A stretch of 64,000 nucleotides of DNA from Chloroflexota bacterium (GCA_013388845.1 JACAEN010000009.1:13767-77766); one strand, 5' to 3'; counted from the first letter of the stretch, positions 3,137 to 42,573 are shown. Translations and numbers: made by a program. Notes: a model not told the origin generated them from the letters alone.

Positions 3137-6100
3137 CTACCGCTCAAGCCTGAGGTTGCTTTCTCCTACTATCTTGCTCAATTCTCTAGCTAATTCAGGG
3201 CAGTAATCTATTGTTGTCTCCGGTATCTCCAGGTTAGTCACTTCATCATCGCTGACGACAGCCAAGGAAACCTTATCTTGCCCGGGATAATTTTTGAGGA
3301 TGTTCATAATCTTCTGGAGGCGTTCGATGTCTTTTTCTGCATCGTCCGATTGGTTGATATCTATCATAACATGGCGCCGCTGGGGTTCCTTTAGCACTTC
3401 CTGCCTTGCCGGGAGGAGACTTGCCTCTTGGCAGTTCAATTGTACTTCCCCGTCTCTGACCTTCACTACGCCCTTGATGGTGAGGATATTACCTTCCTGC
3501 CACAGCCCCTGCGTGCTCTCGTAGAGTTTGGGCCAGGCGATGACCTCAATACTGGCATCCAAATCCTCAATTGAGGCGACAATAAAAGGACGTTTATCTC
3601 GGGTATAGGCTTGCCGCACCGAGACCACCATCCCCGTGACCGTAACCATTTCATCAGCCATGTCGGCATTGATTTCGCCGCAGGAAATAATGCCTGGCGA
3701 GGCCGGTTCTTTGGCGAGGAAATCAAGTGGTTGAGAGAAATATACCCCAAGGAGCTCTCTTTCCCACATAAGTTTTTGCTTGACGGATACCTCTTCCGCA
3801 GCTTGCTTGAAGCCAACGCGTGGGGTTGGAGAGCTTGGAGCCAGAAAATCAAACATGCTCATTTGTCCCGATTCCTTGGCTTTTTGCTCCGTTTGGGCCA
3901 GCGCCACAATCTTATTCAAGGACTCCAGGAGTGTCTTACGGCTGCCCAAAGGGTCAAACGCACCAACTTTGATCAAGCTTTCCAATACTTTCTTATTGAT
4001 GTTACGAAGGTCAGTTCGATAGCAGAAGTCTTCTACGGACTTAAAGTCGCCCCCGGAGTTCCGGCCAGATAAGATATGCTCAATCGGAGAAAAGCCAACA
4101 TTTTTGATAGAAGCCAGTCCAAAGCGGATGGCGGAATTATTTTCATCATCCTTTTCAATGACGAAGCTGGCATAGCTCCTATTAATGTCCGGCGGTAGGA
4201 CTTTGATGCCCAGCCTCCGGCATTCAGCAATCGCTGAACGGATCTTATCCATATTATCTGAATAAGTATTGAGAAAAGCGGTCATATATTCGACGGGATA
4301 ATTTGCCTTCAGATAGGCGGTGCGATAGGCAATGAGGGCGTAGCTAACGCTGTGGGCTTTGTTGAAAGCGTAACCAGCGAAAGGCTCAATTAGAGCAAAT
4401 ATCTCCTTGGCTAATTCTGGCGATATGCCCTTTTTTCTCGCTCCGGCGATGAAATTGCGCTCCTCTTTCTTCATTACCTCAGGTATCTTCTTCCCCATAG
4501 CCTTACGAAGGATGTCAGCCTGTCCCAGACTATAGCCGGCTAGAGCTTGGGCGATAAATATTACTTGCTCCTGATAAACGATAACTCCGTAAGTTTCTTT
4601 GAGAATCTCTTTTAGAATAGGATGGGGATAACGAATAGGAGCAACACCCTGCTTGGCTTTAATAAAAGTGGGAATTTGTTCCATGGGGCCAGGGCGATAG
4701 AGCGCCACCATAGCCGCGATATCGCTAAAGCTGGTGGGCTTAAGCTCCTTGATATAGCGTCGCATCCCGGCGCTCTCCAGTTGGAAGATGCCTTTAGTTT
4801 CCCCCGAGGCAAGCAACTCAAAGGTCTTGCTGTCGTCGAGAGGAATACGCTGGAAATCTAAAGAGATTCCCCGATTTTGAGCAATAATCTCCTTAACTTT
4901 CGCCAGAATTGTCAAATTGGATAATCCTAAGAAGTCCATTTTTAACAGCCCTAGGCGGGCGATGTTCCCCATGTGAAATTGAGTCATGATCCCGACTTGT
5001 CGGGACTCACCCTTTCCCAGCAGTTGTAATGGCACATATTCTATTAAAGGCTCATGCGCGATAACCACACCGGCGGCATGGGTGCTGAAGTGCCTGACCA
5101 TCCCCTCCAATTTCTTAGCCGAGTCAATCAGGTTCCGTATGGCGTCATCCTGGTGATAAATTTCATAAAGCTCTCGACTCTGTTCTAGAGCTTTATCCAG
5201 AGTGATAGTCAACTCCAGAGGGATGAGCCGAGCTACTCGGTCAACCTGAGCATAGGGCATTCCTAGGGCTCGCCCTGTGTCTCTTATCGCGGCTCTGGCT
5301 CCCATGGTGCCAAAGGTAATAATCTGGGCCACATGGTCGGAGCCATATTTTTGGTTGACGTAAGCCAAAACTTCGTCGCGACGGTCGTCCTGAAAATCAA
5401 GGTCAATGTCCGGGAGCTCACGGCGCTCGACATTAAGGAATCGCTCGAAAACAAGGCCGTATGCCAGCGGGTCTATATCAGTGACGCCCAGACAATAAAG
5501 AGCCAAACTGGCAGCAGCGCTTCCCCGAACGCCGAAATAGATGCCCCGTTGTCTGGCGAATGAGATTATGTCCCAAACAACGAGGAAGTAATGGGCGAAC
5601 TTTGTCTTTTGGATGACATCGAGCTCATGGCTAAGCCGTTCCCTGACCTCCGAGGCGGGCTTTAGGTAGCGTTTTTCCAAGCCCTGCCAGCAAAGCTCAG
5701 CCAGGAACTCATCAGCTTTTCTGCCCGGAGGCAACTCCACACGCGGCAGATGTAGCTTGGTAAAATCCAGCTCCAGCTGACACATGTCAGCAATGGCTTG
5801 AGTATTCTCCATAGCCTGAGGTAAGTCGGGAAACAATGATTCCACCTCTTCGGGGCTTTTCAGGTAGAAGAAATCGCCAGCCATCTTCAGCCTTTTTTCA
5901 TCATACACAGAGGTATTGGTCTGGATACACAACAGAAGCTCATGGGTGGGGGCGTCTTTCTTATCAACGTAATGCACATCAAAGGTGGCGACCAAGGGTA
6001 TACTGAGCTTCGTAGATAGCGAAACAAGCTCCTGGTTGATTTGTTCTAGTTCAGGGATAGGATGTCTTTGAATCTCCAGATAGTAATCGTCGAAAACTTC

Positions 6101-6589
6101 CTTGTACCACGAAGCTGCCCTGGCCAGCTCATCGCCTCGCCTTTCGAGGATAAGTCGAGCCAGTTCCCCATGCGCACACCCCGAAAGGGCAATAAGCCCG
6201 TCATGATGAAGCTTGAGAAGTTCTTTGTCTACCCTGGGCTTATAGTAAAATCCCTCAAGGTGGCTTTTAGTAACCAACTGGAGCAGATTGCGGTAGCCCT
6301 TTTCATTCTTGACCAGTAAAGTAAGATGATAGGGGTTTTTGTAGGCTGGCTCTCGGCTATGGCAATCGGTCTCGGCGACATAGACTTCGCAGCCAATGAT
6401 TGGTTTTATACCTGCTTCCCTAGCTGCCACATAAAAATCGATGACGCCATACATGGCGCCGTGGTCAGTGATAGCTAGGCTGTCCATGCCCGACTCTTTG
6501 GTCCGCTCAATCAGCTGAGAAATACGGCACATGCCATCGAGCAAGCTATATTCAGTGTGGACATGAAGGTGGGCAAACTTCTGTGGCAT
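3137..6589 (-). CDS. dnaE: DNA polymerase III alpha subunit
   Basis: 1150 aa. N-terminal PHP domain (HLHVHTEYSLLDG), polymerase core, C-terminal OB fold. Confidence 0.95.
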   Translation of the reverse strand: MPQKFAHLHVHTEYSLLDGMCRISQLIERTKESGMDSLAITDHGAMYGVIDFYVAAREAGIKPIIGCEVYVAETDCHSREPAYKNPYHLTLLVKNEKGYRNLLQLVTKSHLEGFYYKPRVDKELLKLHHDGLIALSGCAHGELARLILERRGDELARAASWYKEVFDDYYLEIQRHPIPELEQINQELVSLSTKLSIPLVATFDVHYVDKKDAPTHELLLCIQTNTSVYDEKRLKMAGDFFYLKSPEEVESLFPDLPQAMENTQAIADMCQLELDFTKLHLPRVELPPGRKADEFLAELCWQGLEKRYLKPASEVRERLSHELDVIQKTKFAHYFLVVWDIISFARQRGIYFGVRGSAAASLALYCLGVTDIDPLAYGLVFERFLNVERRELPDIDLDFQDDRRDEVLAYVNQKYGSDHVAQIITFGTMGARAAIRDTGRALGMPYAQVDRVARLIPLELTITLDKALEQSRELYEIYHQDDAIRNLIDSAKKLEGMVRHFSTHAAGVVIAHEPLIEYVPLQLLGKGESRQVGIMTQFHMGNIARLGLLKMDFLGLSNLTILAKVKEIIAQNRGISLDFQRIPLDDSKTFELLASGETKGIFQLESAGMRRYIKELKPTSFSDIAAMVALYRPGPMEQIPTFIKAKQGVAPIRYPHPILKEILKETYGVIVYQEQVIFIAQALAGYSLGQADILRKAMGKKIPEVMKKEERNFIAGARKKGISPELAKEIFALIEPFAGYAFNKAHSVSYALIAYRTAYLKANYPVEYMTAFLNTYSDNMDKIRSAIAECRRLGIKVLPPDINRSYASFVIEKDDENNSAIRFGLASIKNVGFSPIEHILSGRNSGGDFKSVEDFCYRTDLRNINKKVLESLIKVGAFDPLGSRKTLLESLNKIVALAQTEQKAKESGQMSMFDFLAPSSPTPRVGFKQAAEEVSVKQKLMWERELLGVYFSQPLDFLAKEPASPGIISCGEINADMADEMVTVTGMVVSVRQAYTRDKRPFIVASIEDLDASIEVIAWPKLYESTQGLWQEGNILTIKGVVKVRDGEVQLNCQEASLLPARQEVLKEPQRRHVMIDINQSDDAEKDIERLQKIMNILKNYPGQDKVSLAVVSDDEVTNLEIPETTIDYCPELARELSKIVGESNLRLER

Positions 6590-6899
6590 TGATTAAATTA
6601 TAACATTTGAGCTGAGGGCACCAAACGAGGAATTTCTAGCTATCAAAAATTTCTTTACTATCACCATGGGCATCTTTATCTATAATCAGCCGCATAAATC
6701 CTGACACAATTTTACCGGTCAGTGCGAGCCCCGACCTATCGGGCGTGCCAAGCCGCCAGAGCCTCTATAGAGGAGCCCCTCGTGTGCTGCCGCAAAGGTG
6801 AAAGGGGGACAAGCCTCCCCCCTACGAAAGTAGGATTACTAATGGGCGATTGACAGGGAAGCGAACGACTCCTAGACTATATTTAGTTAGTCTTAGGGG

Positions 6900-13235: not shown

Positions 13236-14924
13236 CTAATTTGTTGGTTCCCTCTGAGTTCTTCCGACCTCCACAACCACAGGAATGATGATAGGACGAC
13301 GATGAACTTGCTCATAAAAGAATCTGCTCAAAGAATCCTTTACTCTGGCATCAACGAAGCTCTGGTCAACCAAGCGCCCCTTGTCGTGGTCCAAAGCGGA
13401 TACCACCACACCTCGGCCCTTCTCAATCAACATCTGTTCCCCTCCAGCATCAACAAAGCCTCGTGTGATAATGCGCGGCCTTTCGGCCAGTTTGCCACTT
13501 TCAGCATCAACAGCAATGGTCACCACAACAACGCCGTCTCGCGAAAGCAACTTGCGGTCCCGAAGCACAGTGTTATCCAGCTCACCTGTTATCATGCCAC
13601 TTACATACATAGCTCTAGCACGAGTTCTGCCAACCACCCTTCCCGAATCTTGCCCTAGTTCAAGAATGTCCCCGTTCTCAAGGACAAAAATGTTATCCTC
13701 GGGTATACCCATACTGCGAGCTAAGTTGGCATGCAAGCTTAAATGGCGATACTCACCATGAACAGGAACAAAAAAATTGGGCTTGACCAAACTGAGCAAG
13801 AGTTTCAACTCTTCTTGACTACCATGCCCGTGGACATGAACTTGAGCCAGCTTGTCATAAATTACATTGGCACCTTGACGGAAAAGACTGTCGGTAGTCT
13901 TGCTGACCAGCGCCTCATTGCCGGGAATAGGAGTTGCTGAAATCACCACTGTATCGCCAGGGATTATCTGAACTCGACTGCTGGGGTCACGATTGGCCAT
14001 GCGCACCAAGGCAGAGGTAGGCTCACCCTGGCTTCCCGTGCTCAATACGATAACTCGATTGTGAGGTAAAGTCTTAAGTTCGTCCAGGCGACAAATAATG
14101 CCGGGTGGAGCACTAAGATAGCCCGTCTTCAATGCCATGCTGGCTATCTCCTTCATGCTCCGCCCGATGATAAATACACGGCGACCATGTTTGACGGCAA
14201 CATCAAATACCTGCTGCACGCGAGATATGAGAGAGGCAAATGTAGTTATGATTACCCTCCCTTTTGCCTCGCCTACAATCCGATCCAAAGTATCGCTAAC
14301 CACCCTCTCAGAAGGAGTATAGCCAGGAAGCTCGGCATAAGTGGAGTCAGAAAGAAGAAGCAAAACACCCTTTGTGCCCAGCGAAGCTAATTGGCTAAAG
14401 TTAGTAGCCTCGCTTATGACTGGCGTGTAATCAATCTTGAAATCACCACTGTGAACTACAGTTCCCACGGGAGTGTGAATTATCAGCCCCACAGAATCAG
14501 GAATACTATGGCAAACAGAGAAAAATTCTATGTTGAAATTACCCAGTTTAATCCGGCTCCCCGGGTTAACCAAATTCAATTTTGCATCAGTTCTCACCCC
14601 TCGCTGCTTGAGTTCCATGCGAATCAGCTCTCGAGCGAACTTGGTAGCATAAATGGGAGGGACAAGCCGAGATAAAATATAAGGCAGCGCCCCGATGTGG
14701 TCTTCATGCCCATGAGTGATCACTATCCCCCTCAAATTCTTCTGTCTTGGCAAAAGATAGCTAATATCGGGGATAAGGAAATCAACTCCCAACATTTCCT
14801 CGCCGGGGAACATAAGTCCAGCATCAATGACAACAACGTCATTGGCATATTCCAATACCATCATGTTCTTGCCGATTTCACCTAACCCGCCTAGGGGAAT
14901 GACTCTTAATTTATGTGTGGACAT
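13236..14924 (-). CDS. rnj: Ribonuclease J (metallo-beta-lactamase/beta-CASP RNase)
   Basis: VIPLGGLGEIGKN N-terminus, HGHEDHIG motif, 562 aa. Confidence 0.9.
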   Translation of the reverse strand: MSTHKLRVIPLGGLGEIGKNMMVLEYANDVVVIDAGLMFPGEEMLGVDFLIPDISYLLPRQKNLRGIVITHGHEDHIGALPYILSRLVPPIYATKFARELIRMELKQRGVRTDAKLNLVNPGSRIKLGNFNIEFFSVCHSIPDSVGLIIHTPVGTVVHSGDFKIDYTPVISEATNFSQLASLGTKGVLLLLSDSTYAELPGYTPSERVVSDTLDRIVGEAKGRVIITTFASLISRVQQVFDVAVKHGRRVFIIGRSMKEIASMALKTGYLSAPPGIICRLDELKTLPHNRVIVLSTGSQGEPTSALVRMANRDPSSRVQIIPGDTVVISATPIPGNEALVSKTTDSLFRQGANVIYDKLAQVHVHGHGSQEELKLLLSLVKPNFFVPVHGEYRHLSLHANLARSMGIPEDNIFVLENGDILELGQDSGRVVGRTRARAMYVSGMITGELDNTVLRDRKLLSRDGVVVVTIAVDAESGKLAERPRIITRGFVDAGGEQMLIEKGRGVVVSALDHDKGRLVDQSFVDARVKDSLSRFFYEQVHRRPIIIPVVVEVGRTQREPTN

Positions 14925-24773: not shown

Positions 24774-25412
24774 TCATGATATACGCCGTATCACAGCCAC
24801 CACCTTCCCCTGAATCTCAACATTATCTGGAGTAGTATAAATGGGTTTCATTTGCCTATTTGCTGGCTCCAGGCGGATGCGATTTGGCTCAGCGAAAAAC
24901 CTCTTAAGTGTCACCTCTTGTTCTGCCTTAAGCCAGACCGCTACCATATCGCCATTCTCAGCACTGCTCACATATTCCATTAACACTATGTCCCCATCTC
25001 CTATCAAAGCATCCATCATGGAATCCCCTCTTACTCGAAGAGCATAAATATCTTGCTTGCCACGAACCAACTCCTCACTGACCTCCAATCCTTCACGGGG
25101 AATAACATGGCCTGTGTCAGGCACGGGAATGGGCTCACCAGCAGCTATGACCCCCACTACGGGAATATAAACAAGTTTCCCCCCTTTTTGCTGTGGGTTC
25201 AAAAACTTAATTCCCCGCGATATGTCACTGTGGCGGCGAATATATCCTGCCTCCTCCAATTTTTTCAGGTTATAAGCTACCACTGAGGTGGAGCTTATCC
25301 CGCATCCCGCAGCAATATCTCTAATAGTAGGAGGATAACCCTTATCTTCCAAAAATTCGGTGACAAAGTTGATAATTCGTTCTTGCTTTGGCGAAAGTGA
25401 CTTAATAGCCAT
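24774..25412 (-). CDS. lexA: LexA repressor (S24 peptidase)
   Basis: N-terminal winged HTH (LSPKQERIINFV...PTIRDIAAG) and a C-terminal Ser/Lys dyad domain (GDSM...; ...IGKV). Confidence 0.9.
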   Translation of the reverse strand: MAIKSLSPKQERIINFVTEFLEDKGYPPTIRDIAAGCGISSTSVVAYNLKKLEEAGYIRRHSDISRGIKFLNPQQKGGKLVYIPVVGVIAAGEPIPVPDTGHVIPREGLEVSEELVRGKQDIYALRVRGDSMMDALIGDGDIVLMEYVSSAENGDMVAVWLKAEQEVTLKRFFAEPNRIRLEPANRQMKPIYTTPDNVEIQGKVVAVIRRIS

Positions 25413-34886: not shown

Positions 34887-35828
34887 ATGAAGGTGCGCAC
34901 CGTTTTTATGGGCACTCCGCAATTTGCTGTGCCCATACTAGAGTCTTTGTTCCAGAGTTCCTCTGATGTGATCGCTGTGTACACTCAGCCTGATAAACCG
35001 GCGGGCCGGGGGCACCAGGTTGTTTTTTCTCCCGTGAAAAAGCTAGCTCTGGAGCGACAAATACCGGTTATTCAACCCGAGACTTTTAAATCACGAGAGG
35101 CGGTGGAGAAGCTGGCCAGCTTTCAGCCTGAGCTAATAATCGTGGCTGCCTTCGGTCTTATTTTGCCCTTAGAGGTGCTTTCCTTGCCCAAATTTGCCTG
35201 TCTTAATGTTCATCCTTCACTATTGCCGCGGCATCGAGGTCCGTCTCCAGTCGCTAATGCCATTCTCTGTGGGGATGAACTCACTGGTGTTACCATAATG
35301 GTAATGGACGAGGGATTAGATACCGGGCCGATTTTAGCTCAGGAGAAAGTGGGGATTTCCTTTATGAATTCCGCTGGCTCGCTTAGTTCCAAGCTGTCTC
35401 ACGTAGGAGCCAGGCTTTTGCTGGAGACTTTGCCCAAATGGCTTGGAGGCGAACTTAAGCCGCGAGTTCAAGATGAATCTCAGGCCACTTATAGTAAGTT
35501 CATAACCAGTAAAGACGCCGAGATTGATTGGCACCTTACCGCGGTTGAGGTCTGGCGGAGGGTCAGGGCGTACAATCCCTGGCCCAGCTCCTATACTTGG
35601 TGTCAGGGGAAAAGGCTAAAAATCCATAAAGCTATTCCTTTTGGCGATGTGGCAAAGGGGGAGATAGGGGAGGTAGTCGCTCTGGCTGAGCCACCTGGAG
35701 TTGGGGTGGTAACCAGGCAGGGTGTTTTGGGACTTTGCCAGGTTCAGTTAGAAGGAAGACGGGAACTGCCCATAAAAGATTTTGTCCTCGGCCAGAGAGA
35801 GTTTATTGGTTGCGTTCTGGGGCGTTAG
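34887..35828 (+). CDS. fmt: Methionyl-tRNA formyltransferase
   Basis: FMGTPQFAVPILESL N-terminus and HPSLLPRHRG motif. Confidence 0.9.
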   Translation: MKVRTVFMGTPQFAVPILESLFQSSSDVIAVYTQPDKPAGRGHQVVFSPVKKLALERQIPVIQPETFKSREAVEKLASFQPELIIVAAFGLILPLEVLSLPKFACLNVHPSLLPRHRGPSPVANAILCGDELTGVTIMVMDEGLDTGPILAQEKVGISFMNSAGSLSSKLSHVGARLLLETLPKWLGGELKPRVQDESQATYSKFITSKDAEIDWHLTAVEVWRRVRAYNPWPSSYTWCQGKRLKIHKAIPFGDVAKGEIGEVVALAEPPGVGVVTRQGVLGLCQVQLEGRRELPIKDFVLGQREFIGCVLGR

Positions 35829-35891: not shown

Positions 35892-37001
35892 TTGCTCATT
35901 AGATGTCAAAATTGTGGTAGGGAATCTTCTCTTATTTCCCAATCTTTAGGGATATGCCTCGATTGTATTCGGCAGGACTTCGCCGCCGTACTTCCTAATA
36001 TAAAACAAGCTCATAGCGAAGCTAGGAGACTATTTAGTCTCCCTGTTCATCCCCCGAAAAGCGAAACAGGGTGGCGATGTCAGATTTGTGTAAACGAATG
36101 CCGCTTAGCCCCTGGGAGCAGAAGCTATTGTGGATTGCGCTTTAGCCAGGCAGGCAAGATTAAAGGCGCCACGGCGGACTATGCCAACGTCAGTTGGTAT
36201 TATGACCCTTTGCCCACCAATTGCGTGGCAGATTGGGTTTGTCCCGGTGGCACGGGAGCTGGCTACCCTCGGTTTGCCTATTCTGATGGCCCTGAATATG
36301 GATATAAGAATTTGGCTGTTTTCTACCAGGCTTGTTCCTTCGATTGCCTATTTTGTCAGAACTGGCATTATCGCAGCTTGGCGTTACAGGAGGGCAAAGT
36401 CACGGCTGCAAGCTTGGCTAATGCTGTTGACGACCGTACCTCTTGTATCTGCTACTTTGGCGGCGACCCCACGCCGCAGTTGCCCCACTCCCTTCGCGTC
36501 GCCCGACTGGCTTTGCAAAAGAAACGGGGTCGGATTCTGCGCATCTGTTGGGAGACCAATGGCTCCACGCATCCCGCGTTGTTAAAACAGGCTGCCGAGA
36601 TTGCCTTAGATTCTGGCGGGTGTATTAAATTTGACCTCAAAGCCTGGGACGAAGGCTTACATATTGCCCTCTGTGGTATAAGCAATAAGAGGACTCTGGA
36701 AAACTTTCAACTCCTCGCCGAATATGCTCAGAAAAGGCCTAAACCTCCCTTGTTGGTAGCCAGCACCTTGCTAGTTCCCGGATATGTAGACGGGCAAGAA
36801 GTTTCCAACCTCGCTAGATTTATTTCCTCCCTCAGCCCTGAGATCCCTTATTCCCTTCTCGCCTTTGCACCTCAGTTTATGATGCGTGATTTGCCCACCA
36901 CTTCCCGGCGCCACGCTGAAGAATGTCTGGCAGAGGCACAGGCACAGGGGCTAAAAAGAGTCAGGCTAGGCAATGTTCACTTGTTGGGAAAAGATTACTG
37001 A
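35892..37001 (+). CDS. Radical SAM enzyme of the AmmeMemoRadiSam-system type (PFL-activase-like)
   Basis: N-terminal Cys-rich region, then the CSFDCLFCQNWHY radical-SAM cluster motif in the arrangement typical of that family. No AMMECR1 or MEMO1 partner genes are in the window. Confidence 0.55.
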   Translation: MLIRCQNCGRESSLISQSLGICLDCIRQDFAAVLPNIKQAHSEARRLFSLPVHPPKSETGWRCQICVNECRLAPGSRSYCGLRFSQAGKIKGATADYANVSWYYDPLPTNCVADWVCPGGTGAGYPRFAYSDGPEYGYKNLAVFYQACSFDCLFCQNWHYRSLALQEGKVTAASLANAVDDRTSCICYFGGDPTPQLPHSLRVARLALQKKRGRILRICWETNGSTHPALLKQAAEIALDSGGCIKFDLKAWDEGLHIALCGISNKRTLENFQLLAEYAQKRPKPPLLVASTLLVPGYVDGQEVSNLARFISSLSPEIPYSLLAFAPQFMMRDLPTTSRRHAEECLAEAQAQGLKRVRLGNVHLLGKDY

Positions 37002-37072
37002 TCTCGGCATTGTGCGGCTTATCCCGATTTTGGGTATTGATCTTTCTGAGAGGGATTAAGTTTCTCCTTTCT

Positions 37073-37120
37073 TTTGTTTAGGGTTTCGGTGGAGCCATAG
37101 TATAATAAGGCTGTGGCAAA
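37073..37120 (+). promoter_or_regulatory. Conserved promoter/operator module, copy A: TTGTTTAGGGTTTCGGTGGAGCCATAGTATAATAAGGCTGTGGCAAA. TATAAT box at 37101-37106, bracketed by the near-palindrome GCCATAG...CTGTGGC.
   Basis: About 85% identical to a second copy upstream of polA (39835-39883). Confidence 0.55.
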
Positions 37121-37162
37121 GTGGAAGACAAAAGAAGGAAAAACTATATGGAGGTTACAATA

Positions 37163-38173
37163 ATGCCGGATATTGAACTAAAAAAGATACAACCGAACAG
37201 GCTAAATCCAAGGCTTGAGTTCACCAAGGCCGGGCTGGATGAACTCGCAGACAGCATTAAACAGGTAGGGCTTCTTGAGCCTATTATCGTGCGACCGTAC
37301 GGAGGCGAATATCAAGTTGTGGTGGGAGAACGTCGCTATAGGGCTGCGCAGCAAGCTGGCTTAGATAGGGTGCCAGTCATTATTCGAGATTACACCGACG
37401 ACGAGGTAATGGAGCTAAATCTAAGTGAAAACATTCATCGAGAAGACTTGAGTGCTGCCGAGAAAGGCAATCTGTGTCGCAAACTCCTAGAAAAGTTTCC
37501 ATCCAAATATCCAACTCAGACTAGTTTGGCAAAAAAGCTTGGGATTAGTGACCGCACGCTAAATGAATGGCTCAGTGTCTCCGATTTGTCGGACAAAATA
37601 CAGCGAAGGATAGCTCCAGGGGCTAAAAGGGGTGCTGTTCCTGAAGGTAAAGTAGACTACTCGACTGCCCTGCGGATTGCCAGACAAATCAAGGAGCCTG
37701 AAAAGGCTGCTGAAGTAATTGAACATATAGCTGAAAGGCACATCCCGCAAAGATTAGTAACTCGAGTTGCCAAGCAAGTCGTGCGGGAGCCTCAAAAACC
37801 TGTCGAGCAAATTTTTCAGAAAGTTATTGAGGAAGCCCCCATACTTTTGCCCTTCTCCAAACCTCATGCTGATGCTATTCTCGCGGGCATTAAAACGCAG
37901 ACCTCTAGGAAAGCGAAAGATCCAAGGCTCCAGCCAGGTGTTACCGTGAGGGCACAGGTTACCCATTTTGCTGACCTAGAGGTAACCGACGTTTATCGAA
38001 AGAAACTGGGAGACTTTGATAAGGAGGATGCAAGGAGGGAAGGTGGCTATACTCTCGACCAGTTCAAAGAGGTTTGGAAGAAGCTCCACGGAGAATGGAA
38101 CCCAAACGAATCTGTTTACATTACTAGATTCAGACTCGTCAGAGTAGTTGGAGAGCCTGACAGTCCCAGCTAA
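37163..38173 (+). CDS. Fusion protein: ParB/Srx-like N-terminal domain + HTH + C-terminal ASCH domain. Start at the Met of MPDIELKK with a GGAGG RBS; the GTG at 37121 in the ORF track is less likely.
   Basis: ParB box GERRYRAAQQAG and LEPIIVRP. HTH LAKKLGISDRTLNEW. ASCH signature ...ADAILAGIKTQTSRK...GVTVRA... Confidence 0.65.
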   Translation: MPDIELKKIQPNRLNPRLEFTKAGLDELADSIKQVGLLEPIIVRPYGGEYQVVVGERRYRAAQQAGLDRVPVIIRDYTDDEVMELNLSENIHREDLSAAEKGNLCRKLLEKFPSKYPTQTSLAKKLGISDRTLNEWLSVSDLSDKIQRRIAPGAKRGAVPEGKVDYSTALRIARQIKEPEKAAEVIEHIAERHIPQRLVTRVAKQVVREPQKPVEQIFQKVIEEAPILLPFSKPHADAILAGIKTQTSRKAKDPRLQPGVTVRAQVTHFADLEVTDVYRKKLGDFDKEDARREGGYTLDQFKEVWKKLHGEWNPNESVYITRFRLVRVVGEPDSPS

Positions 38174-38198
38174 GATAGAAGACTCGGGAGGTATTTCG

Positions 38199-38402
38199 AT
38201 GGAACGAAAACCAAGAGTTTACTGGTTCAAAGGCAAAAAAGGGCGGAAGGATACCTTGCTCTTTGATGCTGGTTATGAATTGGGTTTCATTTACGTTTAC
38301 GAATTTAAAGAAAGCCTACCAGCAAGTCAGCTAGAAAGCCAAATTGAAAAATATGGCTATTTTCAGGCCTGGGATATAAGTCCGTCACGTGACGTTCCTT
38401 AA
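38199..38402 (+). CDS. Hypothetical small protein (67 aa). MERKPRVYWFKGKKG...
   Basis: GGGAGG RBS 8 nt upstream. Tightly packed after the ParB-ASCH gene. Confidence 0.4.
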   Translation: MERKPRVYWFKGKKGRKDTLLFDAGYELGFIYVYEFKESLPASQLESQIEKYGYFQAWDISPSRDVP

Positions 38403-39219
38403 CTGGGGTAGTGTGGTGGTCTATCAGCGTAAGAAAGTACTCATAGTTGTAAAGACTTATCCGACTCCAGCGAGGAAGGGTGTCGAAGTATCCTGCACCG
38501 CAGGCATCACTGAAGATAGAAAATGGATAAGACTCTTTCCCTTGCCATTCAGGTTCTTGCGAAGCGAGAAGCAATTCAAAAAATATCAGTGGATTGAGGT
38601 AGCTGTGATGAAAGCTTCCGACCCTAGGCCAGATAGCTGGATTGTAGATTTAGACTCGATAAAAGTCCTAGGCGATCCCCTTCCCACTTCTGATGGTTGG
38701 CAGGCTCGGAAGGATATAGTTCTGCCATTACTGGCCCCGTCACTTTGCCATCTGGTTAGAAATCGCGAGAAAACAGGCTCAACATTGGGCATTTTCAAGC
38801 CAAAGGAAATAAGGGGACTTATCATAGAGCCAGAAGAGTCGGCTAGTTGGACCGAACAAGAACTGAATATACTATCACAAGGGTCGATGTTTGACAGAAA
38901 GCCGTTCAAACTACTGGAGAAGATACCTTATAAATTTATCTATTCACTCACATGTAATGAACCTAGTTGCGTGGGGCACCGATTATCTGTTGTAGATTGG
39001 GAAGTTGCTCAGGCGTATCGGACCTGGAGAAAGCATTACGGCAATCAGTGGGAACAGCCTTTCCGACAACGATTTGAAACAGAAATGATCCGTAAATACG
39101 ATACCCATTTCTATGTAGGAACACTCAGGGCGCACCCTGATAGGTGGATTATTATAGGTTTGTTCTATCCGCCACGATTAACGTGGAGCAGGTCTATTGG
39201 AGGTGTGAAGTGGGCGTGA
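38389..39219 (+). CDS. Hypothetical protein (~270 aa), no recognisable domain. The start is uncertain (GTG at 38389 or 38413).
   Basis: Long open frame overlapping its neighbours by a few codons. ...KKVLIVVKTYPTPARKGVEVSCTAGITEDRKWIRLFPLPFRFL... Confidence 0.45.
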   Translation: MTFLNWGSVVVYQRKKVLIVVKTYPTPARKGVEVSCTAGITEDRKWIRLFPLPFRFLRSEKQFKKYQWIEVAVMKASDPRPDSWIVDLDSIKVLGDPLPTSDGWQARKDIVLPLLAPSLCHLVRNREKTGSTLGIFKPKEIRGLIIEPEESASWTEQELNILSQGSMFDRKPFKLLEKIPYKFIYSLTCNEPSCVGHRLSVVDWEVAQAYRTWRKHYGNQWEQPFRQRFETEMIRKYDTHFYVGTLRAHPDRWIIIGLFYPPRLTWSRSIGGVKWA

Positions 39220-39668
39220 ACGGAAGTGACTGGTTAGAGCAGCCAAGCACAGAGTTGTGGGAAGCGAGGCGACGCTGGTTCGACGAACTGGCCGAGTCAC
39301 TCGCTGGTGAAGGAGCCTACGATGTTAGTGAACAAGCTTGTGCTCTCATAGGTGAAATGCAGACAGCGTTTTGTGCTGGCGCATGGGTCGCTGTCCTCGT
39401 GCTGGCGATGGCCGTGGTCGATGCTCAACTTCGGGAGACCGAGCTGCCGGGGTTTAAGGGAAATACTCAGCAGCTTCTGGATGCTGTTCAAGCAAATCCT
39501 GAGTTGCAGCGGCTTCGTGGAAGACGAAATGCCATCATTCACATAAGGCCTGAGAATCCAGCGATTACATTGGACCAGCAATGGGCCAATCGGGCTGAAC
39601 TGGAGCAAGAGGCTAAGCAAGCTGTGAAGCTCATGTTCGAAGCTTTCTACATTGGACCAATGGTATGA
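39210..39668 (+). CDS. Hypothetical protein (~152 aa). GTG start at 39210 preceded by GGAGG; the ORF-track ATG at 39144 overlaps the upstream gene by 76 nt.
   Basis: Open frame ...SDWLEQPSTELWEARRRWFDELAESLAGEGAYDV...AVLVLAMAVVDAQLRETELPGF... No known domain recognised. Confidence 0.4.
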   Translation: MGVNGSDWLEQPSTELWEARRRWFDELAESLAGEGAYDVSEQACALIGEMQTAFCAGAWVAVLVLAMAVVDAQLRETELPGFKGNTQQLLDAVQANPELQRLRGRRNAIIHIRPENPAITLDQQWANRAELEQEAKQAVKLMFEAFYIGPMV

Positions 39669-39834
39669 CGTGAAGGTCAGACCCCTTCAAGTGACCTGAG
39701 TGACATGCTCAGAATTGAGATAGTTCCGCAACTGCCTGTTCACTCAGTATGATATGGACGGAGATGAAACAATCTCAAAGGCCCAAAATTCAAAACCCTC
39801 ACGTTGTGGGCACTGGGAATTCAGGTTTTGATAT

Positions 39835-39883
39835 TTTTAGGGTTTCGGTGCTGCCATAGAGTATAATAGGGCTATGGCAAACG
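39835..39883 (+). promoter_or_regulatory. Conserved promoter/operator module, copy B: TTTTTAGGGTTTCGGTGCTGCCATAGAGTATAATAGGGCTATGGCAAA. TATAAT at 39862-39867. Perfect palindrome GCCATAG-N12-CTATGGC. The polA ATG at 39874 lies inside the right half-site.
   Basis: Read directly from the sequence. With the -10 box ending 6 nt before the polA ATG, this implies a leaderless or near-leaderless transcript. Confidence 0.55.
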
Positions 39884-42573
39884 AGAGGAAACCGCTTTTA
39901 TTGCTTTTCGATGGCAATGCCTTGATTCATCGTGCCTTTCACGCTCTGCCCCCGCTAACCCAATCCAAGACTGGGGAGCTGGTGAACGCCGTTTATGGCT
40001 TTGCCAGCACCTTGCTCAAGGTCCTTGCTGAGTTTAAGCCCACCCATTGGGCTGTGGCTTTTGACCGTCCCACACCGACCTTCAGGCATGAAATGTTTGC
40101 GGAATACAAAGCGCAACGTCCGGCTACGCCCGAAGAGTTAAAAAACCAGATAAAAAGGGTTCACCAATTGGTGGAAGCTTTTCATATCCCTGTTTTTGAA
40201 ATTGATGGTTTCGAAGCGGATGATGTTCTGGGCACCTTAAGCAAGCAGGCTGAAGAGCAAGGCATTGAGACTATTATTGTTACGGGGGACAATGATATGC
40301 TGCAGGCAGTCTTGCCTCGAGTGAAAGCGCTGGCTCCCAGGCGAACTTTTACCGATACCATCCTTTACGACGCGGAAGCAGTGGAACAGAAATATGGCAT
40401 TAAACCGGAGCAACTTCCTGACCTGAAGGCGCTGGTTGGCGATGCCTCGGATAATATACCCGGCCTGCCAGGAATTGGTGAGAAAACGGCCACTAAATTG
40501 CTTCAGCAATATGGCAGTCTCCAGGGCATTTACGACCATATCGAGGATGTAACGCCGAGTAAGTTGCAGGAAACGCTACGCCAATATCGTGACCAAGCTT
40601 TCCAGAACAAGGAGTTGTCCACTATAGTCAAAGACGTTCCTGTCAAGCTGGACTTGAAAACCTGCCAGGTAAGCCACTATGACCGTGATGAGGTGGTGAA
40701 ACTTTTCCACGAGCTGGAGTTTATTAATCTGCTTCCCAGATTGCCTCAAATGAAAGCTGAGAGCTCCGAGCCCTCGGCAATCAATTGTCAAATAGTGAAC
40801 ACCGAGACAGATTTGGAACGGCTTGCAGGCGAACTGGAAGCGGCGCAGGGCATCGCCCTGGAGATTGAAACCACGGGTGAAAATGCTATGGCGGCGGATT
40901 TAGTAGGGATAGCCGTATCACCGACTCGAGGGAAAGTTTTTTATATACCATTAGAGCACATGGGTTTGAATCAGCCACCACAATTGGCGCTAAATCGGGT
41001 GGTAGCTAAGCTCAAGCCAATTTTGGAGAACGCCAGCATAGGCAAAATTGCCCATAATGGGAAGCATGCTATAGCGGTGCTGGCTGGCAGTGGGACTAAG
41101 CTTGAGAATCTGAATTTCGACCCCATGATTGCTGCCTATCTCCTTGGTGAAAAGAACCTCGGTCTTAAGGCTCTGGCCTTTAACAAGCTGGGCATCGAGA
41201 TAACAACCACTGCTGAATTGGCCAGCTCAGAGAAGAAACAAAGCTCCGTGTCCTTCCTAGGGGTAAGCCAGATCGCGAACTGCGCTTGTGCCAGTGTGAA
41301 TATCCTGTGGGGTTTAAAGGAGCATTTGGAAGCTGAACTGCGGCAGCAAGGCTTGTGGCAGCTTTTCACTGAAGTGGAAATGGCTTTGATTCCAGTTCTG
41401 GTGACTATGGAGAGAAATGGCATTCTTTTAGATACCAGCCTGCTTCGTGAGATGTCTCTAGAGCTGGGTCACCGACTGCTGAAATTGGAGAAAGAAATCT
41501 ACAGCAGCGTCGGGCACCAGTTCAATATCAACTCGCCCCAGCAATTGGGCAAGGTCCTTTTTGAAGAACTGAAGCTGCCTCAGTCTCGCAAAACGAAAAG
41601 CGGCTATTCCACGGAAGCCTCGGTCATGGAAGCATTGAGAGGTGTTCATCCGGTAATCGAATTCATACTGCAGTATCGTCAACTTAGTAAGCTCAAGTCA
41701 ACATATATTGATGCTCTGCCCGCTCTTATTAACCGCAAGACGGGAAGGGTGCATACCACTTTCAACCAGACGGGCACAGCTACCGGGCGGCTCTCTTCCA
41801 GCGACCCCAACCTCCAGAATATACCTGTCAGGGGCGAACTGGGAAACAAGATACGGAAAGCCATCATTGCTCCGCCCGGGGCGTATCTCCTAAGCGGTGA
41901 TTATTCCCAGATTGACCTCAGAGTCCTAGCTCACCTCTCTCAAGATCCCGGTCTCATTACCGCTTTTGCCCACGATGAGGATATCCATGCTGCGACTGCC
42001 TCTAAACTCTTTGGCATCCCCAGAAATGAGGTGACTCCTGAGATGCGCCGTAATGCCAAAACAGTCAATTTTGGAGTGATTTATGGGATGAGCGATTATG
42101 GCTTGGAGCAAGCCACCAATCTCAGCCGGGAGGAAGCCGCCCAATTTATTGCCCTGTATTTTGAGAAATATCCCAGGGTGAAAGAATATCTTGAGGCCAC
42201 CAAGGAGCAAGCTCGCAAGCTGAGCTATGTTCAAACAGTGTTGGGGAGGAGGCGGTTCCTGCCCGAAATTAATTCCTCCAACAGGGTGGTCAGGGAGGCT
42301 GCCGAACGCATGGCTATAAATGCCCCGGTGCAGGGCAGCTCCGCCGACATCATCAAAATTGCCATGATAAATCTACATCGGGAAATGGAGAGGCGGAATC
42401 TCAAAAGCAAGATGTTGTTACAGATACACGATGAGTTGCTCTTTGAGGTGCCCGCGGACGAAGTGGAGGAAATGAGACCAATGGTCACTGAGCTGATGCC
42501 CAAGGCTTTCCAGATTTGTGTTCCCTTGAAAATAGATATCAAGCTGGGCCGAAACTGGGCTGAGATGGAGTAG
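39874..42573 (+). CDS. polA: DNA polymerase I
   Basis: 899 aa. 5'-3' exonuclease domain, 3'-5' exonuclease-like domain, and polymerase motifs (DYSQIDLRVLAH; QIHDELLFE). Confidence 0.95.
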   Translation: MANERKPLLLLFDGNALIHRAFHALPPLTQSKTGELVNAVYGFASTLLKVLAEFKPTHWAVAFDRPTPTFRHEMFAEYKAQRPATPEELKNQIKRVHQLVEAFHIPVFEIDGFEADDVLGTLSKQAEEQGIETIIVTGDNDMLQAVLPRVKALAPRRTFTDTILYDAEAVEQKYGIKPEQLPDLKALVGDASDNIPGLPGIGEKTATKLLQQYGSLQGIYDHIEDVTPSKLQETLRQYRDQAFQNKELSTIVKDVPVKLDLKTCQVSHYDRDEVVKLFHELEFINLLPRLPQMKAESSEPSAINCQIVNTETDLERLAGELEAAQGIALEIETTGENAMAADLVGIAVSPTRGKVFYIPLEHMGLNQPPQLALNRVVAKLKPILENASIGKIAHNGKHAIAVLAGSGTKLENLNFDPMIAAYLLGEKNLGLKALAFNKLGIEITTTAELASSEKKQSSVSFLGVSQIANCACASVNILWGLKEHLEAELRQQGLWQLFTEVEMALIPVLVTMERNGILLDTSLLREMSLELGHRLLKLEKEIYSSVGHQFNINSPQQLGKVLFEELKLPQSRKTKSGYSTEASVMEALRGVHPVIEFILQYRQLSKLKSTYIDALPALINRKTGRVHTTFNQTGTATGRLSSSDPNLQNIPVRGELGNKIRKAIIAPPGAYLLSGDYSQIDLRVLAHLSQDPGLITAFAHDEDIHAATASKLFGIPRNEVTPEMRRNAKTVNFGVIYGMSDYGLEQATNLSREEAAQFIALYFEKYPRVKEYLEATKEQARKLSYVQTVLGRRRFLPEINSSNRVVREAAERMAINAPVQGSSADIIKIAMINLHREMERRNLKSKMLLQIHDELLFEVPADEVEEMRPMVTELMPKAFQICVPLKIDIKLGRNWAEME

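Follow-up and report, generated by a model that had tools for sequence, protein, structure and literature searches.

In homology-facilitated illegitimate recombination, one end of the incoming DNA is joined by homology and the other end is joined illegitimately (PMC3240628). The same process has also been proposed for the orphan arrays at type VI secretion system (T6SS) and Rhs loci (PMC5361080). Here, we describe a related arrangement at polA, the gene for DNA polymerase I, in a stretch of 64,000 nucleotides (nt) from an uncultured member of the Dehalococcoidia (Chloroflexota bacterium, GCA_013388845.1 JACAEN010000009.1:13767-77766), referred to below as the window. A short module with the predicted promoter and the start of polA is present there in two copies: copy 2 stands directly at polA, and copy 1 precedes a 2.65-kb accessory operon located just upstream. 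The two copies are probably the leaderless core promoter and start of polA, doubled when the operon recombined between the promoter and its gene.

The locus shares several features with the orphan systems of Rhs, contact-dependent inhibition (CDI) and T6SS genes (PMC3240628, PMC5361080). There is a conserved anchor, in this case polA and its promoter, an apparently illegitimate junction at the other end and an orphaned fragment of the resident sequence, and repeated events build arrays. Unlike in those systems, the orphan here consists of a promoter and 3-12 codons, it would become the promoter of the cargo, and the mechanism is deduced from the junction anatomy only. A second likeness is to the integron platform (Pc and attI), in which unrelated cargos also gather directly behind a single resident promoter that can drive their expression. 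However, there is no IntI, attC or fixed crossover at polA, the promoter is duplicated each time, and one of the cargos lies in the opposite orientation. Taken by itself, the polA promoter is unremarkable and belongs to the leaderless, -10-type class. The novelty lies in the leaderless promoter-plus-start unit of an essential gene, which has been duplicated repeatedly, both as a by-product of cargo insertion and as a probable expression device for the cargo, with an in-frame chimeric mini open reading frame (mini-ORF) as part of this. Accessory and possibly defensive genes can in this way come under the promoter of an essential gene without disrupting that gene.

A duplicated polA module around an accessory operon

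A preliminary description of the window reported two 48-nt copies of a promoter-type module, about 85% identical, one ahead of polA and one ahead of an operon that starts with a gene for a ParB_N-HTH-ASCH protein (ParB-ASCH). Alignment of the two copies agrees with this: 42 of 50 columns are identical over the 48/50-nt core, with a single 2-nt gap, and TTTAGGGTTTCGGTG is exact in both (37077-37091 and 39836-39850). A 29-nt core gave no match across 100 shuffles of the window, so the repeat is not due to chance. The copies are thus real, but their extent was underestimated. Comparison with relatives by blastn shows that the 48-nt copies are the cores of a duplication of about 115 nt (37019-37132 and 39779-39893), over the full length of which the two window copies are identical to each other in 76 of 122 columns. 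No third copy was found in the window by mismatch-tolerant searches with both halves of the module and with its dyad.

The duplicated unit is made up of the polA upstream region and the first three codons of polA, and it brackets the 2.65-kb insert. In blastn comparisons, relatives align to 37019-37132 with the region upstream of their polA (about -95 to +18, 82-92% identity); past this point, the homology is lost, and it returns at 39779. Copy 1 is 82-92% identical over 86-116 nt to the region upstream of polA in L001, L002, L004, L005, L022 and L044 (related loci are cited here by number). The upstream sequence typical of the relatives, TTGTTTAGGGTTTCGGTGGAGCCATAGTATAATAAGGCT[A/G]TGGCAAAGG, is found in more than 20 genome-derived relatives and in 98 metagenome stretches, and it is the same as copy 1, including the first three polA codons. 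Overall, about 120 genomes and metagenome contigs of uncultured Dehalococcoidia have the module in front of polA. This comparison indicates that the module is the polA promoter and start region of the clade, with copy 1 as its standard form and copy 2, which has an extra AG and belongs to an allele without a hairpin, as an atypical one. The earlier suggestion that the ParB-ASCH operon and polA have a promoter-type module in common is supported. The core of copy 1 is identical to the polA promoter sequence of more than 100 relatives. The hairpin of copy 1 (37048-37076) was considered as a terminator and rejected, as it folds only weakly (-8 kcal/mol, z -0.4).

ParB-ASCH operons in other contexts made it possible to resolve the left junction. 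There, ParB-ASCH is preceded by a gene for a protein of 80 amino acids (aa) that ends in ...EEDIGLVREKTKEGKTVWRLG and whose stop codon overlaps the ParB-ASCH ATG as TAATG. The 80-aa protein ends in ...REKTKEGKTVWRLG in L185, L186 and L188, with the same TAATG overlap. In the window, this gene is truncated to its last 13 codons, which are fused in frame to codons 1-3 of polA (GTG-GCA-AAG) to make a chimeric mini-ORF. Thus, where the native terminus reads KTKEGKTVWRLG, that of the window, L092 and L183 reads MAK+(W/G)+K(T/K)KE(G/E)KT(I/V/G)WRL.. before the stop. In the L092 and L183 variants, a 3-nt indel near the end of the mini-ORF leaves the frame and the stop-start overlap intact. The point of joining falls somewhere within GAAGA/GAGAGAA, a stretch that polA has at codons 3-6 and the 80-aa gene has at its 3' end.

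L092 and L183/L184 have the identical left junction. The L092 cassette lies between an ICMT-like gene and polA, and both of its module copies have the 10-nt spacer (N10) in the dyad described below. Its sequence from the PDC-M19B-like gene through the 5' end of polA is 89.6% identical to that of the window, and its ParB is 77% identical. L183/L184 have kept the left module copy, with no polA downstream within the contig. The same cassette with the same left junction is therefore found in differing left contexts, next to a radical SAM gene in the window and next to an ICMT-like gene in L092.

The same end structure could formally arise if the polA promoter had been duplicated in place, either in tandem or by copying of a 115-nt segment in front of an operon that was already there, and had then diverged without any horizontal insertion. 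ParB-ASCH genes do stand beside AMMECR1 or radical-SAM-type genes elsewhere, so that the radical SAM/ParB neighbourhood could be old. Such an origin is nevertheless very improbable. The left junction truncates the first gene of the operon, the identical cassette and junction occur in differing flanking contexts, and in most relatives the promoter directly adjoins polA and the neighbouring genes are unrelated. Furthermore, two alleles of the -40 to -60 region circulate in the population, with or without the hairpin and T-tract, and copies 1 and 2 differ in allele, which points to exchange between lineages and against duplication in place.

Insertion with capture of the promoter accounts for the anatomy of the locus, in which the cargo runs without a break into a polA upstream region and polA at one end, its other end is apparently joined illegitimately inside the first codons of polA, and a fragment of the resident promoter is left behind. 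Homology-facilitated illegitimate recombination would predict junctions of this kind, and a Campbell-type single crossover of a circle with one module copy would fit equally well. The incoming operon, [truncated 80-aa gene]-ParB-ASCH-67aa-PDC-M19B-like-150aa, probably came from a related lineage. One of its ends would have joined illegitimately at codon 3-4 of the recipient polA, in a short purine-rich stretch, while the other would have brought its own polA upstream region as the homology for a second exchange. The outcome would be an orphaned resident promoter with GTG-GCA-AAG (copy 1) ahead of the cargo, with polA kept expressed by copy 2. Copy 1 would then drive the operon as a leaderless transcript with the 16-codon chimera as its first ORF, and ParB-ASCH would be translated by coupling at the TAATG, from its own GGAGG site, or by both means.

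Apart from copy 1, nothing in the 50 nt ahead of ParB-ASCH resembles a promoter. In all copies of the ParB cassette, from three lineages, TATAAT-N6-GTG is perfectly preserved, despite an identity of only 77-79% between the ParB genes. Together, these features suggest that the captured polA promoter drives transcription of the ParB-ASCH operon as a leaderless mRNA.

Several points weigh against this reconstruction. The microhomology at the crossover is short, about 2-7 nt, and even without selection, one fusion in three would be in frame. ParB-ASCH has its own GGAGG site 8 nt upstream of its start, and with this Shine-Dalgarno site, coupling is not required. The exact pre-insertion state (radical SAM gene-promoter-polA) was not found in any related genome examined, and a sliding-window profile of polA identity is without a clear donor/recipient breakpoint. 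As for the promoter, there is no canonical -35 element (TTGACA-like, at 16-18 nt), and a consensus sigma-70 scan does not call the module. Finally, GTG, which is the leaderless start of about half of the relatives, is inefficient as such in Escherichia coli (PMC4633059).

The start of polA and the dyad around its -10 element

For leaderless translation in mycobacteria, it is necessary and sufficient that the mRNA begins with an ATG or GTG (PMC4633059). There, the -10 element lies 6-7 nt before the start, and at polA a TATAAT stands 6 nt before the ATG or GTG, which leaves no room for a Shine-Dalgarno sequence. Both start codons are used in the two groups, and by the mycobacterial precedent a short ORF at the 5' terminus is expected to be translated (PMC4633059). 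The mycobacterial starts have been mapped, whereas the geometry described here is read from the sequence of uncultured Dehalococcoidia only.

The polA product has the Pfam DNA_pol_A domain (1.4e-165) and 5'-3' and 3'-5' exonuclease domains. It also places the host among the uncultured Dehalococcoidia, with a closest PolA that is 86% identical in a protein search with one genome per species. The first possible start after an in-frame stop is at 39874. As described earlier, this ATG lies 6 nt past the TATAAT, inside the right half-site of the dyad. The arrangement TATAAT-N6-ATG/GTG is found in about 37 of 46 Dehalococcoidia polA loci, with a spacer of N5 in two loci and N7 in one. It is kept at PolA identities of 52-64% despite unrelated surroundings (…CTCTGCTATAAT-N6-ATG), and about half of the relatives have a GTG start. 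Indels just past the polA start are multiples of three (L165 lacks 3 nt, and L091, L012 and others have gained 18 nt), which implies that the region right after the start codon is translated and that the codon is used. The preliminary description had considered polA to be leaderless, and the comparison of loci supports this: polA is very probably leaderless, with a predicted transcription start at the start codon itself. The comparative evidence thus points to synthesis of DNA polymerase I from a leaderless mRNA throughout the Dehalococcoidia.

A related observation is an in-frame insertion of six codons, AVPGGE, at polA codons 5-11 in a sub-lineage (L012, L091, L129, L131, L132, L139 and L159), all members of which keep TATAAT-N6-ATG. 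The predicted promoter is presumably -10-dominated, and the module copies beside ICMT-like genes are without TTTAGGG. Only four long ORFs among the approximately 60 genes of the window, including polA and dnaE, have the geometry TAnAAT-N5-7-RTG, which is therefore specific to a few genes and not genome-wide. dnaE, which encodes the alpha subunit of DNA polymerase III (3137-6589, minus strand; 1150 aa), has a TATAAT, 7 nt and an ATG at 6589-6620, and is thus a second replication gene with leaderless-type geometry. In the literature searched, we found no paper that links leaderless mRNAs to Dehalococcoides and no transcription-start maps for Dehalococcoidia.

The -10 element of the module is bracketed by the inverted half-sites GCCATAG and CTATGGC in both copies, as had been noted. 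In copy 2, the dyad is perfect (GCCATAG-N12-CTATGGC, 39853-39878), and its arms are really 8 bp long (TGCCATAG/CTATGGCA). In copy 1, it reads GCCATAG-N10-CTGTGGC (37094-37117), with 6 of 7 positions complementary and a spacing that is 2 nt shorter. The preliminary description took the dyad as the operator of a dimeric repressor, either LexA or a dedicated regulator, that would occlude the -10 element and co-regulate polA and the ParB-ASCH operon. A 7-8-bp dyad over the -10 element of both copies does amount to dyad symmetry overlapping a promoter. It is 6-7/7 complementary in all polA-proximal copies of the close clade, and both lexA and dinB are present in the window. Even so, such an operator is quite improbable, and co-regulation by one repressor or an SOS circuit finds no support in the comparison of loci.

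The first difficulty is the spacing, which is N10 in copy 1 and in every relative and N12 in copy 2, so that a rigid dimer would not bind both alike. Among the related loci compared, the N12 form is found only in copy 2; a metagenome scan for the core gave 98 stretches, and all of the 80 listed have the 24-nt N10 form. The right arm consists of CT, the ATG and GC, that is, of a start codon and an alanine codon that are constrained anyway. The dyad is kept only among relatives in which all of the 48 nt are conserved. It drops to 1-5/7 in relatives with 52-81% identical PolA, in which TATAAT-N6-start is retained, and to 4/7 in L183, where the module serves only the cassette. A 7-bp dyad is in itself unremarkable, since the window contains 49 perfect 7-bp inverted repeats with spacers of 8-14 nt. 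Nor is there a regulon of further GCCATAG/CTATGGC sites: with spacers of N8-N14, none was found beyond the polA promoters and their duplicates in the window and 0.81 Mb of related Dehalococcoidia loci.

The LexA of Dehalococcoides is expected to use a box of the GAAC-N4-GTTC type. The module resembles LexA/SOS operators in having a palindrome over the promoter of a DNA-repair gene, but its sequence is unrelated to this box. There is no such box in or near either copy, and the only match in the window, at 14453, is more than 20 kb away from both. The insertion would itself explain the duplication: the module probably came to be shared when the operon was inserted, and a common repressor is not needed. 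Nothing requires a clade-specific operator at polA. Promoter capture thus offers a structural explanation in place of the regulatory hypothesis, and a regulon search or an electrophoretic mobility shift assay with LexA would probably be negative.

lexA itself (24774-25412, minus strand) starts at 25412, a few nucleotides past the coding sequence of an rpsT-like gene (ribosomal protein S20), with which it may be co-transcribed. No GAAC-N4-GTTC is visible in the 320 nt examined near lexA.

A role of the dyad in a structured RNA was also considered. A hairpin of -12 kcal/mol is possible in a read-through RNA (z -1.8, -3.5), but it would lie upstream of the leaderless start, and an Rfam search of 36800-40100 gave no structured RNA at E<=1.

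Recurrent cargo at the polA promoter

The polA upstream neighbourhood is highly variable among relatives, and a second copy of the module is detectable in 19 of the 86 loci that have at least 1.5 kb upstream of polA. Directly after the core, the 98 metagenome loci have either polA (MAKEEKPLLLLFDGNAL...) or one of three cargos that can be recognised. In addition to the ParB cassette, there is an array of one to five ICMT-like genes, in which the left module copy covers -130 to +10 and is followed by GGTATTGACAA..., while the right copy starts from about -30. The third cargo is a segment of 1.1 kb in which an NMO/FabK-like gene runs in the opposite direction; its left module copy covers -36 to +37 (L098, L136). 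A compact, leaderless promoter-plus-start unit has thus been duplicated repeatedly at one spot. The locus would be a convenient natural marker of gene flow among uncultured sediment Dehalococcoidia.

The ICMT-like cargo has a TTGACA-N17-TAATCT of its own, and the module copies upstream of it have an altered -10 element (TATAGT, TACAAT or TATGAT). Tandem genes for ICMT-like membrane methyltransferases, about 192 aa long and about 50% identical to each other, are found directly upstream of polA in L088 (7660-11140), L083, L112, L134 and many other loci, and these arrays often begin with a decayed polA promoter module. In L098, a 751-aa protein with a DGQHR motif is encoded just upstream of the duplicated polA promoter (4542-6797, minus strand). 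We take DGQHR-domain proteins to be DndB-like and defence-associated, in which case this would be another defence-type gene at the hot spot.

Recurrent insertion at one place, direct repeats flanking the insert and a core of about -25 to +9, dyad included, that is common to all of the independent duplications could also be read as signs of site-specific recombination. The module or its dyad would then be an attachment site, the cargos integrase-mobilised islets and the two copies attL and attR. This is improbable. There is no integrase or recombinase in the insert of the window or in the other cargo types, and the positions of the junctions vary between events: there are junctions at +10, about +9 to +18 and +37, and right copies that start at -30, -117 and -36. 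On both grounds, site-specific integration becomes less likely. Moreover, the ParB cargo is joined on its left within a truncated gene, at an apparent microhomology, a hallmark of illegitimate, not site-specific, joining. The core sites of tyrosine recombinases are typically 6-8 bp long, and the 10-12-bp central region of the dyad exceeds this length.

In a more far-reaching view, sediment Dehalococcoidia might have a dedicated gene-capture platform in the conserved leaderless promoter of polA (close to dnaA in the window and in several relatives), with the dyad core (-25 to +9) as the recombination target. This is unlikely. If it were true, each cargo would gain an orphaned promoter and start codon from an essential gene, as in an integron without the integron integrase, and defence-like ParB-ASCH/PDC-M19B cargos would be expressed via a leaderless chimeric mini-ORF coupled to the first cargo gene.

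A dispersed repeat, a miniature inverted-repeat transposable element (MITE) or an insertion sequence (IS) was considered as the source of the copies and rejected: only polA-linked copies were found in the window and 0.81 Mb of related loci, and the repeats are direct and about 115 nt long.

Two genome contexts of polA can be distinguished. In many relatives, a conserved pair of genes, one for about 207 aa on the plus strand and one for 254-266 aa on the minus strand, lies about 1.5 kb upstream of polA (L002, L006, L008, L010, L015, L022 and L044), and a PolX-like gene precedes a comparable pair in L005 (2836-6410). In the window and some other loci, polA is instead found near dnaA-fmt. A rearrangement breakpoint between the two contexts thus seems to lie at the polA promoter.

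Genes of the insert and its neighbourhood

The features of the locus are listed in Table 1. The limits of the insert were taken from blastn and from comparison with L092, L179 and L183. In most relatives, the insert is missing between promoter and polA.

Table 1. Positions in the window of the module copies, the insert and the surrounding genes
Feature	Position	Strand	Description
dnaA	33369-34745	minus	
fmt	34887-35828		
Radical SAM gene	35892-37001		
Copy 1	37019..37121	+	Clade-standard polA upstream region, about -95 to +9; hairpin and T-tract 37048-37076; TTTAGGGTTTCGGTG 37077-37091; GCCATAG 37094-37100; TATAAT 37101-37106; GTG-GCA-AAG 37113-37121
Chimeric mini-ORF	37113..37163	+	16 codons, predicted leaderless; (M)AKWKTKEGKTIWRLQ and stop; TAA stop overlaps ParB-ASCH ATG (TAATG)
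Insert (cargo)	37122..39778	+	2.65 kb; left junction in purine-rich GAAGA/GAGAGAA; right end about 39770-39778
ParB_N-HTH-ASCH protein	37163..38173	+	336 aa; alternative start 37148 gives 341 aa
67-aa ORF	38199..38402	+	No family match
PDC-M19B-like protein	38389..39219	+	276 aa; candidate phage-defence component
150-aa ORF	39216..39668	+	Last operon gene; no family match
Copy 2	39779..39881	+	polA-proximal copy, allele without hairpin; TTTAGGGTTTCGGTG 39836-39850; TGCCATAG 39852-39859; extra AG 39860-39861; TATAAT 39862-39867; 6-nt spacer; polA ATG 39874
polA, DNA polymerase I	39874..42573	+	899 aa; predicted leaderless mRNA

The first complete gene of the insert encodes ParB-ASCH, which matches ParB_N (2.2e-29) and ASCH (4e-09) in Pfam as well as TIGR00180 (2.5e-40) and has 1665 relatives at E<=1e-20. 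A 67-aa gene is called at the same position as that of the window in L179, L180, L183, L184 and L188. The corresponding segment, 38177-38416, is absent from the otherwise collinear cassette of L092, and it is thus a variable component of the operon. The last gene has counterparts of 144-152 aa, called at the same position in L179, L183, L187 and L188, and its product is 94% identical to that of L092.

The PDC-M19B-like protein matches PADLOC PDLC04508 (E 2.7e-65) and has no match in Pfam, NCBIfam or PDB sequences. The true start of its gene is probably about 10 codons downstream of 38389. The gene adjoins ParB-ASCH or stays near it in other contexts as well. The likeness to the PDC-M19 system of PADLOC thus lies in the PDC-M19B match and in the company of a ParB-nuclease-type partner, in places beside toxin-antitoxin and methyltransferase genes. 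Unlike in PDC-M19, no match to the PDC-M19A partner was found among the neighbouring proteins of the window or L185-L187, and an anti-phage role is here only predicted. The cargo is accordingly described only as a candidate defence operon. PDC-M19 is not mentioned in the literature searched.

A phage origin of the cargo was considered and set aside, as there is no viral contig with the module and the sole viral PDC-M19B-like match is weak. A mobile element was likewise rejected: the insert contains no transposase or integrase, and DDE transposase-like genes accompany ParB-ASCH elsewhere only. In L185 (192-3942), L186 (552-4991) and L187 (228-5410), the ParB-ASCH/PDC-M19B-like pair is preceded by a gene for 140-157 aa, which in L187 has a weak HARE-HTH match, a DDE_Tnp_1-like gene (403-508 aa) and a gene for 80-91 aa. 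The conserved order in these three diverged loci suggests that the DDE_Tnp_1-like gene is part of the system and not a chance IS insertion.

In L181 (52-1580) and L182 (117-1648), an AMMECR1 gene is followed by ParB-ASCH, with overlapping stop and start codons. The radical SAM gene of the window is weakly similar to the AmmeMemoRadiSam radical SAM enzyme (TIGR04337, below cut-off), and the occurrence of ParB-ASCH together with AMMECR1 or radical-SAM-type genes may be a recurring association.

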